Shown here: in pieces, positions 1-54,794 of the stretch
Layout: every line of letters begins with the position of its first letter
Position numbering within the stretch: position 1 is the stretch's first letter
Assembly (NCBI GenBank): GCA_964595465.1
Contig: CAZQQI010000011.1
Location: forward strand, 8,301-72,300
From: an uncultured Planctomycetales bacterium
Lineage (GTDB): Bacteria > Omnitrophota > Gorgyraeia > Zapsychrales > JANLHA01
Direction of reading: 5' to 3'
Length of the DNA: 64,000 bases
Notes under the pieces: generated by a model
Told to the model about the DNA's origin: nothing
The model's database searches: none
What the model saw: the letters and a program-made list of their open reading frames with translations, nothing else
Program-made: the position numbers and the translations under genes

Positions 1-1494
1 TATCGATCCGCGGGAACAGCGCCTCATGCGTCCCCAGCTCTGTTCCCGGAGTCAAACCGGGATAGGCGATCTTGCTCTCCCTCGCTCCCAAAACCTTAAG
101 CACCTGATCCGTCTTCTCGGGCATGACCGGGCTCAGCGCCACCGCCGCCGCCCGCAGGGCTTCCGTCGCTGTATATAGAACCCTGCCGGCCGCCGGCAGA
201 TCGGTCTTGGCCAGCTTCCAGGGGGCCTGGACTTCCATATATTTATTGGTCTGCCGCACCAGCTGAAGGGTCTCTTCGATCGCGTCATGGATACGCATAT
301 CATCGACCAGCCGGGCGATCTTTTCCTCCAGCGTGTTAATGGCGGTGATGGTCCCTTCTTCATCCGCAGTCGGCTCGCCCGGTTCAGGGATCCTGCCGTC
401 AAAATATTTCCCCAGCAGGCCGCTGACACGGTTCAGCAGATTACCGAAATCATTGGCCAGGTCGCTGTTATAGCGTTTAATAAAAGACTCCGGTGTAAAA
501 CTAGCGTCCAGGCCCAGAACCATCTCGCGCATCAGGTAATAACGGACCGCGTCCACCCCGAATTCATCGATCAGCTCCAGCGGGTTGACCACGTTGCCCA
601 GGGACTTACTCATCTTGGCCTCACCGGTCAGCCACCAGCCGTGGGCAAAGATCATCTGCGGCAGTTCCACGCCCAGCGACATCAGCATGGTCGGCCAGTA
701 CACCGCGTGCGTGGTCAGAATATCCTTGCCGATCAGATGCGCAGAGACCGGCCACCATTCGGCAAAACGCTGTTCATCCGATCCCCAGCCGGGGGCTGAA
801 ATATAATTCATCAGCGCGTCAAACCAGACATACGTCACATAATCCTTGTCAAACGGAAGCTCGATCCCCCAATTCAGGCGTGACTTAGGACGGGAAATAC
901 ACAGATCGCCCAGCGGCTGACGGAGAAACCCCAGGATCTCATTCCGGCGGGATTCAGGCTGAATAAATTTCGGGTTCTGCTCAATATGGTCGATCAGCCT
1001 CTGCTGATAATGGCTCATACGGAAAAAATAATTCTTCTCCTTAAGCTGCTTCACATCGCGGAATTCGCCGGACTGCTTCTCGGTCTCGGTAATGAAGCGC
1101 TCTTCAGCGACGGAGTACCAGCCCTCATATTCATCAGCATAGACATCGCCGTTATCGTAGACCTTCTGCAGGGCATGCTGGACGATGCGGGTATGACGCG
1201 ATTCAGTAGTCCGGATAAAATCATCATTGCTGATCTCCAGTTTGCGCCATAATTCCTGAAACCAGGAAACCATTTCGTCACAGTGCTGCTGCGGCTCCAC
1301 ACCGCGTTTTTCAGCGGCCTGCTGGACCTTCTGCCCGTGCTCATCGACGCCGGTCAGAAAAAATACCTGCTGATGTTCGACTTTGTGATACCGGGACAGA
1401 ACATCCGCCAGGATCGTGGTGTAGGCATGCCCGATATGCGGGCGGTCATTGACGTAATAGATCGGTGTGGTGACATAATAATGATTGGGGTCCA
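1..1494 (-). CDS. metG: methionyl-tRNA synthetase (N-terminal about 498 codons; gene runs off the window start)
   Basis: My own reverse-strand translation from the ATG at 1494 gives MDPNHYYVTTPIYYVNDRPHIGHAYTTILADVLSRYH... (HIGH motif) and ...WLTGEAKMSKSLGNVVNP... (KMSKS). The frame stays open to position 1. It is absent from the ORF track because there is no stop inside the window. Plus-strand ORFs 287..799, 585..806, 986..1252 and 1283..1513 are its shadows. Confidence 0.9.
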
Positions 1495-1520: not shown

Positions 1521-2390
1521 TTACTGTTTCGGTTCCGCTTCCTGCGGACCGCTTTCCGTCTTCTCTTCCCGGTGCGGCTGATCATCCTGCGCGCCCTTTT
1601 CCTCCAGAGGTCCGTAATCCATCTTGATCAGCTTTCCTTCGACATCGATCAGGGCGAAGCGTTTGAGGATGTTGACGTCGCGCACGCGCCCCCGCCCTTC
1701 CGGCGTGTTGACCTTGTCCCCGGCCCGCGGCAGGTCCCGGGAGAGTTCCCGGTAGGCCTTAAACTCATAAGCCATACAGCACTTGATCCGGCCGCAGACT
1801 CCGGAGATCCGGGACGGGTTCAGAGGCAGGGCCTGTTCCTTAGCCATTTTGATCGACAGCGGAAAGAATTTCTTGATATAGGACGAACAGCATAACTGAC
1901 ATCCGCAGACACCGTACCCGCCGACCATCTTGGCCTTGTCGCGGACAGGGATCTGCTTCAGCTCAATGCGCACACGGAAGACCTTGGCCAGATCTTTGAC
2001 CAGGGCGCGGAAATCCACCCGCTGGTCCGCGGTGAAATAAAAAATGATCTTACTGCAGTCGAACGTGTATTCCGATTTGAAGATCCTCATATCCAGCTTG
2101 CGTTCATTGACCTTGCGCGCACAGATCGAAATGGCGTCGCGGGCTTTCTGCATGTTATTGCGGATCTGATTCTGATCTCCTTCGGTTACCACCCTCAGGA
2201 CCTTGCCTGTGCAGCGCGCTGTCTCGGGGACATGTTCTTCATGTTCCGGCTCGGAAACAACCCGGCCGAACTCCGTGCCCCGCTCCGCCTCCAGGATCAC
2301 ACAATCGTTCCGCTGACATGCCACATCATTCAATTCAAAATACGCCACAGGACGGAAATGCCCGACCTGGACCTGTACAAGTTTTGTCAT
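1521..2390 (-). CDS. ricT: PSP1 C-terminal domain protein (RicT/YaaT family)
   Basis: 289-aa ORF with a PSP1-like conserved region and cysteine-rich segment (GYGVCGCQLCCSSYIKKF...CGRIKCCMAYE). It sits immediately downstream of holB, as yaaT does in Bacillus. Confidence 0.7.
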   Translation of the reverse strand: MTKLVQVQVGHFRPVAYFELNDVACQRNDCVILEAERGTEFGRVVSEPEHEEHVPETARCTGKVLRVVTEGDQNQIRNNMQKARDAISICARKVNERKLDMRIFKSEYTFDCSKIIFYFTADQRVDFRALVKDLAKVFRVRIELKQIPVRDKAKMVGGYGVCGCQLCCSSYIKKFFPLSIKMAKEQALPLNPSRISGVCGRIKCCMAYEFKAYRELSRDLPRAGDKVNTPEGRGRVRDVNILKRFALIDVEGKLIKMDYGPLEEKGAQDDQPHREEKTESGPQEAEPKQ

Positions 2391-19693: not shown

Positions 19694-19777
19694 ATGCATC
19701 CTTTCTTTTTAATGGCTCTCTAAAATTTTGAGCGGATAGATCAAAAAATAAGGCGATGCTTTCGCGCGCAGTTCCGC

Positions 19778-19907
19778 AGCCGAATGGCTATGAAGATGGT
19801 GAGGGACTCGTTCGCTCAAACAACCTCCCCGAACATTTTTATAGTGAATTGTTCGGCTCGGAACTCGCTCTGCGAGCCCCTCACCATCTTCTATAACGCC
19901 ATTCGGA
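19778..19907 (-). repeat. family-1 structured intergenic element, copy A (inverted relative to copies B-D)
   Basis: The outer stem pairs gaatgg with ccattc and gaagatggtgaggg with ccctcaccatcttc. The core is the reverse complement of the core in copies B-D. Track ORF 19709..19933 is its spurious translation. Confidence 0.8.
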
Positions 19908-20126
19908 CTAAGACTGTTTGAACAAGAAAGCACAACCTCGCCCTTCTTACCCGCTCATCTTTCCAAAGACCCTTTTTCATAACGGTCATCGCATATAATA
20001 GGTATTATAACAAAAACGCCGCTCTCAGTTCAATAATAAATGCGCCCTCTTCCCATAAAGAAAAAAATAACGTATACTATAAACAGTACATCAAAAAAGC
20101 TGCAATCCCTGTAGGACCTTATAGCC

Positions 20127-21209: not shown

Positions 21210-21533
21210 TCAGGATAGGGATATTTTGTCGGCGATATCCGCCGCGATAGGCAAATCCACGTACTGCCCCATCAGGGCTTTAATGATGCCGATAAAGGCC
21301 AGAACAAAAAGAAAGAACACCAGCACTTTCACCAAAACCCAGGGAAGAATAATGCTCAGGATGAACATAGCCACCTGGCCGATAAACAGAACCAATCCCT
21401 GTTTGGCGTGAGCCAGAACGAAAGGATCATCTTTTTTGAAAAGCAGAGGAAAGATACACAAAATAGACAGATATCCCAAAAGAGCAAAGATCTTGGATTC
21501 TGCGTTGCGTGGGACAGGAGCCGATTTAGTCAT
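21210..21533 (-). CDS. DUF4870-like small membrane protein
   Basis: 107 aa with two or three TM helices and an FVLAHAKQGLVLFI motif; 8-nt overlap with the upstream ParA-like gene. Confidence 0.6.
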   Translation of the reverse strand: MTKSAPVPRNAESKIFALLGYLSILCIFPLLFKKDDPFVLAHAKQGLVLFIGQVAMFILSIILPWVLVKVLVFFLFVLAFIGIIKALMGQYVDLPIAADIADKISLS

Positions 21534-22641
21534 TTGCCTGAACCTCTATGAGAGAGTTGATATCGCCGAAAGAGTTGCGTTCCTGGTCAGGGTTTGACGG
21601 ATCTTCCCGCCAGCGTCCGTCGACAATAAACTGATAGCGGTAATTTCCCGGACGCAGAGGGACCTCGACATGCCAGCGTCCGTCGCCGTTGCGGTTCATG
21701 CGGAACTGTTCATCCAAAGACCAGTCATTAAAACTTCCGGTCACATAAACCGACTGCGCGTCCGGCGCGTCCAGTTCAAAACGGATACGGCTGAGAAAAT
21801 CTTCAGCCTCCTGCTTGATCGTGTCTTTCATCCGTTCCGAAAGTTCGGTTTCGGATTGTTCGGACCGTTCTTCTTTTGCCTTGGCCTCGTGCCGGGCGAT
21901 CACTTCTTTGGCCAGTGAAAAATAATCTTTGGAGCCCCGGCAGTATTTGTCATAGGTCACGACCGTCTTGCCCATAACCGCGGACTCTTTAAGCTTGACA
22001 TTGACATGGATGATCGTATCGAACAACGAACCGGCAAACATCTCCCGCATCCTGGCCAGCATAGCGAAGGAGTGCCGCAGACGCGAATCAAACATAGTCA
22101 CCAGAATTTTATATTCAACAGGATGATTGAGCCGGTCCCGGATCAGGCGGACAATGTCCATCAAATGCTCAACCCCCTGCAGAGAAAACCGGCTGGTCTC
22201 GACAGGAATATAGACCTCGTCACTGGCACGCAAGGCGTTAATGGTCAAAAACCCCAGGCTCGGCGGGCAGTCGATCAGGACATAATCATACTCATCTTTT
22301 ATCGTATCCAGGACCTCGGTCAGCTTGATCTCACGGCCGATCTCATCAGCCAATTCCTGCTCCAGGGTTCCGACCAAAAGATTAGACGGTACCAGATCAA
22401 AATTGGTTTCCACGCGTTTAATGATCTGACTAATGGTAAGTTTGCGCGGAGCGATCTTGGAGATGACATTATACATGCTCTCCTGACATTCAAAGTTGAG
22501 TCCCAGCGAGGCATGTGCCTGAGGATCCAGATCGATCAGCAGCGTGCGCTTGCCGTCACGGCTGAGTGAAGCCGCCAGGTTGATGGCGGTCGTGGTTTTT
22601 CCGCAGCCGCCCTTTTGATTCCCGATCGATATAATCTTCAT
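21526..22641 (-). CDS. orphan ParA/MinD-family ATPase fused to a C-terminal AMPK-beta/CBM48 glycogen-binding domain
   Basis: Deviant Walker A IGNQKGGCGKTTTAINLA; Soj/ParA-like core of about 250 aa; an acidic linker. The C-terminus VYVTGSFNDWSLDEQFRMNRNGDGRWHVEVPLRPGNYRYQFIVDGRWREDP matches the CBM48/AMPK-beta GBD pattern. No parB nearby. Confidence 0.85.
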   Translation of the reverse strand: MKIISIGNQKGGCGKTTTAINLAASLSRDGKRTLLIDLDPQAHASLGLNFECQESMYNVISKIAPRKLTISQIIKRVETNFDLVPSNLLVGTLEQELADEIGREIKLTEVLDTIKDEYDYVLIDCPPSLGFLTINALRASDEVYIPVETSRFSLQGVEHLMDIVRLIRDRLNHPVEYKILVTMFDSRLRHSFAMLARMREMFAGSLFDTIIHVNVKLKESAVMGKTVVTYDKYCRGSKDYFSLAKEVIARHEAKAKEERSEQSETELSERMKDTIKQEAEDFLSRIRFELDAPDAQSVYVTGSFNDWSLDEQFRMNRNGDGRWHVEVPLRPGNYRYQFIVDGRWREDPSNPDQERNSFGDINSLIEVQAND

Positions 22642-23273: not shown

Positions 23274-23545
23274 ACTGCAAATCCAATCATATCAAAGGGT
23301 TCGGACTCTCCCGCACCCGTAAGCTCTTAAGTGATACTTTATCATAACAAAGAATATATCAATTTTAAAATATTTTTCATGTTTTTTCTATTTGCATATT
23401 TATTGCATTCCTCGTCGAGAAATATGTTTCTATACACATCCAGTCATGGAAAATTTGTTTTGGGGAAAGAATAAAAGGCTCTATGAACGTTTGCGCGGGT
23501 AAAACACAGAATAATGTGATGTTTCGTATTTAAATAATTTCTGCT

Positions 23546-23672
23546 CGAATGGCGATAAAAAAGATCGGGAGGGACACGCAGAGCGAGTTCCGAACCGAAC
23601 GGTTCATTATAAAAACGTTCGGGAGGTTGTTTGAGCGAACGCGTCCCTCCCGATCTTCCTGAGCCATTCAGC
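23546..23672 (+). repeat. family-1 structured intergenic element, copy B
   Basis: cgaatggcgataaaaaagatcgggagggacacg + conserved core gcagagcgagttccgaaccgaacggttcattataaaaacgttcgggaggttgtttgagcgaacg + cgtccctcccgatcttcctgagccattc. A 14-bp inner stem and a 6-bp outer stem. Confidence 0.8.
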
Positions 23673-23783
23673 TGCAAAATTGTACACGAAAGCATTACCG
23701 TATCCGCCATACCCATTTATTTTTTAAAGAAGCAATAAAAAGAAAACGCGCTTTTATAAAAAGCACGCCGTCTGAAAAACACC

Positions 23784-23820
23784 GTAAAAAAAGCCGGCAG
23801 GGATCGCTCCCTGCCGGCGT
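23784..23820 (-). terminator. intrinsic terminator of the porin gene
   Basis: The minus strand reads GCCGGCAGGGAGCGATCCCTGCCGGC followed by TTTTTTTAC, 15 nt after the stop at 23836. Confidence 0.8.
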
Positions 23821-25594: not shown

Positions 25595-25668
25595 TGCGCC
25601 TGGGGGGATTCGAACCTCCGACGCCGGCCTTAGGAGGGCCGCGCTCTATCCATCTGAGCTACAGGCGC
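25595..25668 (-). tRNA. tRNA-Arg (anticodon CCT)
   Basis: The minus strand reads GCGCCTGTAGCTCAGATGGATAGAGCGCGGCCCTCCTAAGGCCGGCGTCGGAGGTTCGAATCCCCCCAGGCGCA: a 7-bp acceptor stem, a D arm, anticodon stem CGGCC/GGCCG with loop CTCCTAA, and a T arm. CCA is not encoded. Confidence 0.9.
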
Positions 25669-46910: not shown

Positions 46911-47044
46911 AATATAATGTACAGCGAAAGGTAAATAAGAAATAGGAAATAATACGACAACCAGTAATCTTTTTCGGCTCTATGAAGTTTTGATTAAACA
47001 AATCAAAGGATACCATAATTCTTCCATACATAAACAATTCTCGC

Positions 47045-47174
47045 CTGAATGGCGATAAAAAAGATCGGGATGTGGTCGCAGAGCGAGTTCCGAACCGAAC
47101 AATTCATTATAAAAACGTTCGGGAGGTTGTTTGAGCGAACGATCACATCCCGATCTTCATGAGCCATTCAGCTG
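47045..47174 (+). repeat. family-1 structured intergenic element, copy C
   Basis: ctgaatggcgataaaaaagatcgggatgtggtcg + core + atcacatcccgatcttcatgagccattcag. Compared with copy B, the inner stem carries compensatory changes. Confidence 0.8.
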
Positions 47175-47245
47175 TGGAACTGCACGCAAAAACATCACAT
47201 CATCTTCCTCGCCCCTTACCTTTCCAAAGAACCGCTTTTTATCCA

Positions 47246-53917: not shown

Positions 53918-54163
53918 TCACAAAGTGCGGGATGGCTGCTTTTTATGCCATTTGCCGTCATCGCCCTTTTTATACTGACTTTTAACGGCGTTCCAGGCGA
54001 CCTTGCGGGCGGTCGCTTCTCGGCCGGAACTGTCTTTACGCTTATCAGATGAAGAGTATTCATCATAAGCGCTGTTGAATGCTTTCCTGAAAATCTCCTG
54101 CGCATGCTGAGGAAGAATATCCTGTAAATTTGCCGGCAGGTCTTTACGGGAAGAATACGGCAT
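53918..54163 (-). CDS. chaB: ChaB-family protein
   Basis: MPYSSRKDLPANLQDILPQHAQEIFRKAFNSAYDEY... matches the ChaB N-terminus. The start is preceded by AGGAGG. The track's longer ORF adds an implausible Cys-rich hydrophobic leader. Confidence 0.7.
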   Translation of the reverse strand: MPYSSRKDLPANLQDILPQHAQEIFRKAFNSAYDEYSSSDKRKDSSGREATARKVAWNAVKSQYKKGDDGKWHKKQPSRTL

Positions 54164-54285
54164 GATTACCTCCTGAAATTGAGATCCCGGGACTAACGGG
54201 AAAAAAAATATGACAGACATACAAGCACACAAATTATGTCACTCTTGATCCTATACAATATGTTCTTCGATCCAACAGCCCTCAC

Positions 54286-54418
54286 ACGAATGGCGCTAAA
54301 AAAGATTGGGATGTGTTCGCAGAGCGAGTTGCGAACCGAACGATTAACGATTCACTATAAAAACGTTCGGGAGGCTGTTTGAGCGAACGAGCACATCCTA
54401 ATCTTCATGAGCCATTCG
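54286..54418 (+). repeat. family-1 structured intergenic element, copy D
   Basis: acgaatggcgctaaaaaagattgggatgtgttcg + core + agcacatcctaatcttcatgagccattcgg. The inner stem pairs gatTggg with cctAatc, where copies B and C pair gatCggg with cccGatc. Confidence 0.8.
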
Positions 54419-54623
54419 GCGGGGGAACTCGCTCGAAAACACATGACACAGTCTCCTTTTAATGACATAATTCCTGAGCATTAACCCCAGCCAACTTTTG
54501 TGAAGAAAAAAGGATGATGACTATTTAATTAATTGTAAACTTTTGATAATAAACAATTTATGAGATACGACACCATTTTTTTTCTTAACACCAGGCCCAT
54601 CTGCGGGACCGGGGACTGTTGTA

Positions 54624-54794
54624 TCATTGCTGCATCTGTTCGACTTCACGCTCAACATCCTGCGCGGCATCCCGCGTTCCTTCCGATACGGTCTCCCCGG
54701 CCTGTTCCATATCATTCTGCGCTTCTTCACAGCCGGTCAAAACGATCCCTGCAAATAAAATCATTATCATAATAATTCCTTTACGGTAAGACAT
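54624..54794 (-). CDS. small lipoprotein (56 aa)
   Basis: MSYRKGIIMIMILFAGIVLTGC lipobox signal, preceded by AAGAGGAGG. Acidic mature part. Confidence 0.5.
   Translation of the reverse strand: MSYRKGIIMIMILFAGIVLTGCEEAQNDMEQAGETVSEGTRDAAQDVEREVEQMQQ

Follow-up and report, generated by a model that had tools for sequence, protein, structure and literature searches.

A probable MITE-like mobile element with a strongly conserved central hairpin in Candidatus Omnitrophota

Four similar intergenic hairpins lie within 64 kb of Candidatus Omnitrophota DNA (the whole stretch that was analyzed, hereafter the window), raising the question of whether such a repeat is a structured RNA or a piece of mobile DNA. 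An earlier description made from the letters alone (the sequence-only reading) had listed copies A to D as a family of elements of roughly 130 nt and had offered both options, a novel structured RNA or an inert transposable element of the miniature inverted-repeat type (MITE). Our analysis indicates that the copies are probably mobile DNA elements, MITE-like and non-autonomous, each about 258 bp long. By sequence comparison, a central module of about 125 nt within them is more strongly constrained than the termini, and this module is old and common to palindromic repeats of other phyla.

Extent, ends and insertion of the element

All four copies were located at the positions described earlier, and the shared 65-nt core was borne out as a long run of invariant columns in a four-copy multiple alignment. 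The core blocks CGCAGAGCGAGTTSCGARCCGAAC and GGGAGGYTGTTTGAGCGAACG gave 4 matches each in the window with up to 3 mismatches permitted, against a chance expectation of 0.00. The unit size of about 130 nt, on the contrary, proved too short. BLAST comparison of the four regions with one another gave 79-84% identity over 134-168 nt (the hairpin and about 28 nt on its 3' side), and when each 5' flank was aligned with the reverse-complemented 3' flank, a long imperfect palindrome appeared around all four copies. Each copy is the center of an imperfect palindrome of 257-259 bp, as follows.

19714..19972, minus strand: full element A, 259 bp; left end GGGTCTTTGGAAAG, right end TTTTAGAGAGCC; both arms align once the 3' arm is reverse-complemented
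23477..23733, plus strand: full element B, 257 bp; ends GGCTCTATGAACG and TTTAAAGAAGC
46976..47233, plus strand: full element C, 258 bp; ends GGCTCTATGAAG and CCAAAGAACC; between ybeY and recO
54224..54480, plus strand: full element D, 257 bp; diverged ends, with AATTATGTCA in both arms; length as in A-C

Six-frame translations of the elements showed no shared open reading frame (ORF), the frame of copy A being shifted by a 1-nt indel. At 257-259 bp, with neither a transposase nor a conserved ORF, the element is non-coding and stays below about 500 bp, as MITEs do. It is also dispersed as MITEs are, with four copies in 64 kb and presence or absence at orthologous sites.

The termini of A, B and C are GGGTCTTTGGAA, GGCTCTATGAA, GGTTCTTTGGAA and GGCTCTCTAAAA, forming inverted repeats of the type GGYTCTTTGRAA. 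A check for target-site duplications, suggested in the sequence-only reading, found 8-bp ones flanking these same three copies, in an AT-rich target. The background was taken from 8-mers at equal spacing across the window, with P(>=6) = 0.005 and P(>=7) = 0.001.

19973..19980: flank duplication of A, TTTTTCAT, partner TTTTTAAT at 19706-19713; 7/8 identical, background P(>=7) about 0.001
23469..23476: flank duplication of B, GAATAAAA, partner AATAAAAA at 23734-23741; 7/8 with a 1-nt shift (shifted form AATAAAAG / AATAAAAA, 7/8), background P about 0.006
46968..46975: flank duplication of C, TCTTTTTC, partner GCTTTTTA at 47234-47241; 6/8 identical, background P about 0.005

Inverted repeats together with 8-bp duplications at inserted copies therefore point to movement by staggered-cut transposition. 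Inverted repeats of the ISL3 family begin GGCTCTTCG, and the direct repeats that they give are of 8 bp (PMC6305408 Table 3); a Microcystis aeruginosa MITE derived from ISL3 has repeats of the same type and 8-bp direct repeats (PMC11448079).

Insertion can be read at copy C. The ybeY-recO spacing of the window is 335 nt and holds copy C and its duplication, while in three relatives (L029-L031, RecO 66-70% identical) the two genes overlap or lie at most 17 nt apart, and the covariance model found no copies in 62 kb of syntenic DNA of these relatives. As all three lack the element at the orthologous site, copy C is an insertion. A second assembly (L028) stops within copy C and the L009 contig likewise breaks in a copy, as repeats tend to cause.

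The central hairpin and its core

The center of each palindrome, from GAATGG to CCATTC, was scored with a covariance model (R1).

19782..19904, minus strand: central hairpin of A, 93.6 bits
23547..23669, plus strand: central hairpin of B (GAATGG outer helix, asymmetric loop, P1, core, P2), 87.8 bits
47047..47169, plus strand: central hairpin of C, 89.9 bits
54288..54417, plus strand: central hairpin of D, 92.7 bits; a 7-nt duplication lies inside P2

The fold of B recovers the architecture that had been described, with an outer GAATGG/CCATTC helix of 6-7 bp, an asymmetric loop, a 15-bp inner helix and the ccgaacg/cgttcgg hairpin. Its folding energy is -64.9 kcal/mol (z = -5.6) on the plus strand and -70.8 kcal/mol (z = -7.5) on the minus strand. 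The module of about 125 nt runs P1, CA-GAGCGA-GUU, P2 hairpin, UGUUU-GAGCGA-A, P1', and its conserved parts lie as follows.

23579..23589, plus strand: core block 1 of B, CAGAGCGAGTT; also in A at 19862-19872 (minus), C at 47079-47089 and D at 54320-54330
23595..23622, plus strand: P2 hairpin of B, CCGAACG / CGTTCGG
23628..23639, plus strand: core block 2 of B, TGTTTGAGCGAA; also in A at 19811-19822 (minus), C at 47128-47139 and D at 54376-54387

Block 1 is identical in the four window copies and in most copies of other phyla (copy L001b reads CCGAGCGAGTT), and P2 is in other lineages a different perfect stem of 7-15 bp. The compensatory differences noticed earlier in the inner helix are real and visible in the alignments, and they persist when more copies are aligned: across 13 copies the inner P1 pairs covary, with double-sided changes at 16/16 pairs next to the core. 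Cells of inner P1 are paired in 92% of cases against 32-44% with the partner slid, and the covariation score is 0.886 against 0.16-0.20. Taking maintained pairing as the mark of selection on secondary structure was correct, but it leaves RNA and DNA unseparated, because REPINs, which are mobile DNA hairpins, show the same frequent compensatory changes (PMC3116915). Covarying helices around conserved unpaired nucleotides are thus present, yet mobile DNA hairpins have them too and they are not discriminating.

When the two GAGCGA strands are modeled antiparallel, they would pair as G.A, A.G, G-C, C-G, G.A, A.G, with one tandem purine-purine step on either side of two Watson-Crick pairs. Of the four GA steps in this modeled core, three stand in the favorable Y-GA-R context, and variants in copies of other lineages are consistent with the register: G9.U5' becomes G-C in L001b and L002b, A4.G10' becomes G4.A10' in L032, and G17-C at the base of P2 becomes C-G in L003. 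Tandem G.A pairs are stable in RNA and in DNA, and therefore the core model is silent on which molecule matters.

Known motifs were compared with this core and rejected. For a kink-turn the tandem G.A pairs are possible, but the would-be C-stem nucleotides by either bulge (G9/G2', A12') cannot pair canonically. The hallmark of integron attC sites is the R''/R' boxes (RYYYAAC ... GTTRRRY) at the stem base, in cassette arrays; here the stem base is GAATGG/CCATTC or lineage-specific, the conserved part is internal and there is no cassette spacing. On inspection, the consensus features of a Xer/dif-like hairpin, of the sarcin-ricin motif and of the UAA/GAN loop were absent.

Beyond the hairpin foot, at homologous positions about 10-20 nt away, A, C and D carry an inverted partial copy of block 1.

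54424..54434, minus strand: inverted partial copy in the right arm of D, GAGCGAGTTCC
19770-19779, plus strand: inverted partial copy in A, AGTTCCGCAG
47172-47181, minus strand: inverted partial copy in C, AGTTCCACAG

The copy in A has the CCGCAG form of other phyla, unlike the CCGAAC form at the window's own centers. These partial copies might serve as a second site for a protein, or as an alternative partner in pairing. A pseudoknot between core AGUUCCG and CGGAACU of the 3' tail was considered and rejected: the two are complementary in A, C and D, but the core substitution of D is uncompensated. An inverted partial copy of block 1 accounts for the 3' tail better than a pseudoknot partner does.

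The core in other lineages and inside dnaE2

A two-block pattern of the exact core was scanned against 185,579 species genomes, and it proved rare, with 3 matches among these 185,579 species representatives: a Eubacteriales metagenome-assembled genome (MAG; L001), an Actinomycetota MAG (L002) and Parvibacter caecicola DSM 22242 (L003, identical to L012). The three share one architecture: the outer stem is long and perfect and leads to GCAGAGCGAGTTCCGCAG, a perfect hairpin with a loop of 3-4 nt follows inside, and then come CGAGGA(C)TGTTTGAGCGAAC and a closing stem. L001 and L002 each have a second copy within 8 kb, with 1-2 core substitutions. In L001 the two copies (185-250, minus strand, and 460-526, plus strand) are opposite in orientation and 210 nt apart, upstream of an hxlR-nitroreductase pair; they have the inner 8 bp of P1 in common and their outer stems differ.

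Scanning metagenomes added six contigs of one JGI sample (L006, L009, L020, L021, L023 and L025), in which the copies lie among housekeeping genes and have a shortened core and their own outer palindrome, (A)GTTACTGGTCA...TGACCAGTAAC(T). The L020 copy has a flank duplication of 7/8; it lies in sense orientation directly upstream of the rplJ leader, a ribosomal protein L10 leader (1610-1746, minus strand) that at 43.3 bits falls slightly short of the gathering score of 44. L021 (639-760) and L025 look like allelic loci of related strains, the former with an insertion of about 75 nt in the right arm.

A covariance model built from 13 copies gives 70-94 bits for the known copies. Results showed that the core of about 30 nt recurs between unrelated, still-pairing stems in at least three phyla, Omnitrophota, Bacillota and Actinomycetota. 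Searches elsewhere were negative: blastn of copy C gave one chance match among 72,556 plasmids and none among 50,697 phages, the pattern scan of viral contigs gave two chance matches only, and the core strings in full-text literature retrieved primers only. The remaining pattern matches (L004, L005, L007, L008, L010, L011, L013-L019, L022, L024 and L026) were rejected as chance or coding tandem repeats; L008, L013, L014, L015 and L026 are degenerate tandem repeats GAGTTTGGGCGAGTTTGG..., chance matches unrelated to the family.

Both L002 copies lie within dnaE2, encoding an error-prone polymerase, on the sense strand, in frame and stop-free. They add about 45-65 residues in two loops, with the core read as AERVPQ ... 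EDC(L/P)SER. Close homologues differ at the first loop: P0140 (locus L035) has no insert there, P0144 (locus L032) has a diverged family member of 123 nt (41 codons; 21 bits with the model), and P0139 (locus L034) keeps a remnant of the 3' half. Judging from these sequences, the dnaE2 inserts appear to be translated and not removed. A profile of the in-frame peptide (AERVPQ...EDCLSER) had no match among 5.8 billion proteins. In-frame insertion within protein-coding genes is also known for Rickettsia palindromic elements (PMC10969869), and the dnaE2 copies extend such selfish palindromes inside genes to uncultivated Actinomycetota.

We also observed that dnaE2 of several Actinomycetota MAGs (L032 10001-13933; P0137-P0144, P0239) carries variable palindromic in-frame inserts in three loops. 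Other inserts in this gene are a GC-rich hairpin of about 200 nt (-132 kcal/mol) and an AT-richer perfect hairpin, neither related to GAGCGA. An IS110-family gene lies 6 kb from the L032 dnaE2 copy; a link with it was rejected, its ends being without the core motif.

Gene context, competing explanations and known systems

Nearly all genes of the window are on the minus strand and the GC skew is negative throughout. All four copies lie 54-273 nt upstream of a gene start. A is located between divergent genes, 15 nt 5' of the start codon of a 119-aa ORF on the same strand. B is flanked by two terminator-like hairpins of the upstream porin-like gene (23745-23818, minus strand) and by promoter-like sites of the downstream gene (23341-23390, minus strand), its target site being the T-tail of the second of these terminators, and D is upstream of chaB. 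The neighbor genes are unrelated to each other: a DUF4834-like protein, an unannotated 196-aa protein upstream of ParA-CBM48, recO and chaB. A common orientation toward named downstream genes had been claimed; the genes exist and the copies are upstream of them, but all four genes are on the strand opposite to the orientation given to the element. The geometry that the copies do share, upstream and pointing away, is expected about 1 time in 8 by chance at n = 4.

Several neighbors are worth recording. At 53918-54772, two small ORFs, element D and chaB stand between dnaE and the HU gene; in L029 and L031 dnaE directly adjoins HU, and at that place L030 carries a Band_7 gene, upstream of HU. The block of chaB, element D and small ORFs looks like a lineage-specific acquisition. 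Downstream of B, the gene at 21526-22641 (minus strand) encodes a ParA/MinD-type ATPase (AAA_31, CbiA) with a C-terminal CBM48 / AMPK1_CBM glycogen-binding module, an unusual domain combination. A tRNA at 25595-25668 (minus strand, 61 bits) is the sole Rfam match of the window, and its anticodon loop CUCCUAA, read by eye, suggests anticodon CCU (Arg).

Of the two options of the sequence-only reading, the MITE is supported by the terminal repeats, the duplications, the absence at ybeY-recO and the mixed orientation, signs of the kind that the sequence-only reading itself had set against an RNA. The better kept central hairpin and the core common to several phyla leave room for a functional reading. 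Several observations nevertheless weigh against a MITE-like element. Copy D has other ends (AATTATGTCA), not of the A-C type, and no flank duplication was found at it. The ends of A-C resemble the ISL3 consensus without identity to GGCTCTTCG, which is only a resemblance, and no transposase with matching ends was found within the 64-kb window. Copies are 79-84% identical to one another in the center, with much stronger divergence in the arms (about half of the positions by eye), whereas in a MITE that simply decays the ends should survive no worse than the center. Sigma-70-like sites lie upstream of 3/4 copies (A, C and D) in the element's own orientation. Finally, the termini differ in other lineages; one transposase family is therefore insufficient to explain the shared core, and a stretch of about 30 nt kept exactly across phyla calls for some constraint beyond the MITE model. 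We hold as tentative and rather doubtful the idea that the module of about 125 nt, with its double tandem-G.A core, is a new structured motif with a function of its own (a ribozyme or protein-binding RNA, or a single-stranded DNA platform recognized by an enzyme), spread horizontally among Omnitrophota, Bacillota and Actinomycetota in different palindromic carriers.

A narrower proposal takes the central 125-160 nt or so as a structured non-coding RNA (a small RNA gene, a ribozyme or a protein-binding RNA) with its own promoter, in the orientation given earlier and with the arms merely as vehicle. We consider it unlikely, even though an invariant core between two covarying stems is the classic signature of a functional RNA, the center and its 28-nt 3' tail are kept better than transposon ends, and the core changes in L001b, L002b and L032 preserve pairing. 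The inner stem, where G-U wobbles had been noted, suggested the strand of that orientation, mismatches in the inner 16 bp being 12 G.T against 2 A.C on it; this signal is lost once the whole element is counted (82/838 against 84/822 on the two strands). In the window it is always the G-rich minus strand that folds better, regardless of element direction, and the wobble argument is confounded by composition because the better strand tracks the GC skew and the whole-element counts are equal. The sigma-70-like sites are correctly oriented for such a gene; promoter-like sites have about the density of shuffled sequence, B has no promoter match within 170 nt, and no promoter or terminator conserved within the unit was found. 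Comparison with Rfam, on both strands and for all lineages, matched no family: the scan of the window at the gathering thresholds of Rfam 15 returned the tRNA only, and E-value scans of copy B and of the other-lineage loci returned chance microRNA-type matches and the unrelated L10 leader only. Orientation relative to host transcription is mixed (sense in L002a/b, L032, L020, L023 and L025; antisense in window copies B, C and D and in L012), in other phyla both P1 and P2 are long, nearly perfect stems, with loops of 3-4 nt, as is typical of DNA palindromes, and the stop-free in-frame dnaE2 copies appear to be translated.

The conserved hairpin might instead be REPIN-like: a structure-specific enzyme, of HUH/Y1 type or other, domesticated and single-copy, would read the tandem-GA core and move the hairpin in single-stranded DNA form, with the outer repeats as a decayed palindrome. 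The conserved part is internal in the structure and the stems are free to vary, as for such an enzyme; the tandem G.A pairs would be stable in this molecule too, the same core is carried with different outer ends across lineages, and compensatory changes are known for REPINs (PMC3116915). Y1/HUH transposition leaves no target duplication, however, whereas A, B, C and L020 are flanked by 8-bp ones; the GTAG-type REP motif is absent, a RAYT-like gene was seen at none of the loci, and REPINs conserve their stems and vary their spacer, the reverse of this element. We regard this explanation as improbable. A host-selected cis-regulator (terminator, attenuator or mRNA-stability hairpin) upstream of particular genes has very little to recommend it: the position of the window copies upstream of gene starts and a hairpin that is very stable on both strands would fit, but the four downstream genes are unrelated, no U-tract follows the hairpin on either strand, relatives have no element at ybeY-recO, and elsewhere the family lies inside coding sequence, after genes and in both orientations.

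Returning to the MITE-like element, its movement would depend on a DDE transposase acting in trans from another place in the genome; end sequence and 8-bp duplication make the ISL3 family the best guess for this enzyme. The tandem-G.A core, once folded as a single strand, may form a rigid, sequence-specific platform in an otherwise variable rod, most likely read by a protein of element propagation or of host handling; that the core itself is catalytic seems less likely. Such a platform would help the element to persist, and effects on neighbor genes (an mRNA hairpin, insulation, stray promoters) would be by-products and not the reason for the element.

If the element is only a MITE, it represents a new repeat family of a poorly known candidate phylum, unsurprising but useful for annotation, since assemblies break at it, it splits an operon and gene callers may mistake it for genes. 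About 30 nt identical in at least three phyla amid compensatory replacement, and better kept than the ends that a transposase should need, implies a reader, be it a protein or a catalytic fold. With its roughly 60-125 nt the core is compact and well defined, and the interest of the element would rise if this core had its own function.

With no Rfam family and no match in the plasmid or phage collections, this is a new repeat family, of MITE/ERIC/RPE-like kind. ERIC sequences occur in several genera, and their function and mobility are unclear. Like the window element, ERIC / IRU are imperfect palindromes (ERIC about 127 bp), with the central inverted repeat most conserved, found in either orientation, intergenic and transcribed; there is no sequence similarity, and ERIC are known only from Enterobacteriaceae and Vibrio, whereas the window core crosses phyla between unrelated stems. 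The Correia / NEMIS repeats of Neisseria are MITEs of 100-155 bp with terminal repeats, a central IHF site and hairpins that are RNase III-sensitive when transcribed. Their terminal repeats, functional central site and hairpins invite comparison with our element, from which they differ by their TA duplication, their known restriction to a genus and the identified protein that binds the central site. Rickettsia palindromic elements (RPE; PMC10969869, where ERIC is also named) are palindromes of about 100-150 bp that lie in frame in genes and are translated as extra loops, as in the dnaE2 copies; they are restricted to Rickettsia and without sequence similarity, and the four window copies are intergenic. 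REPINs with RAYT transposases (PMC3116915) are likewise hairpin mobile DNA of high copy number with selection on the single-stranded fold, but a REPIN keeps its REP stem (GTAG), varies its spacer, makes no target duplication and flanks a RAYT gene, and none of this holds here. Compared with ISL3-derived prokaryotic MITEs such as that of Microcystis aeruginosa (PMC11448079), the window ends resemble but do not equal GGCTCTTCG (GGCTCTATGAA, GGGTCTTTGGAA), no cognate transposase lies in the window, and the element is palindromic throughout, with the center and not the ends best conserved. What the two have in common is a small, non-coding, multi-copy and intergenic element, with inverted repeats that start GGCTCT in those MITEs and an 8-bp target duplication.

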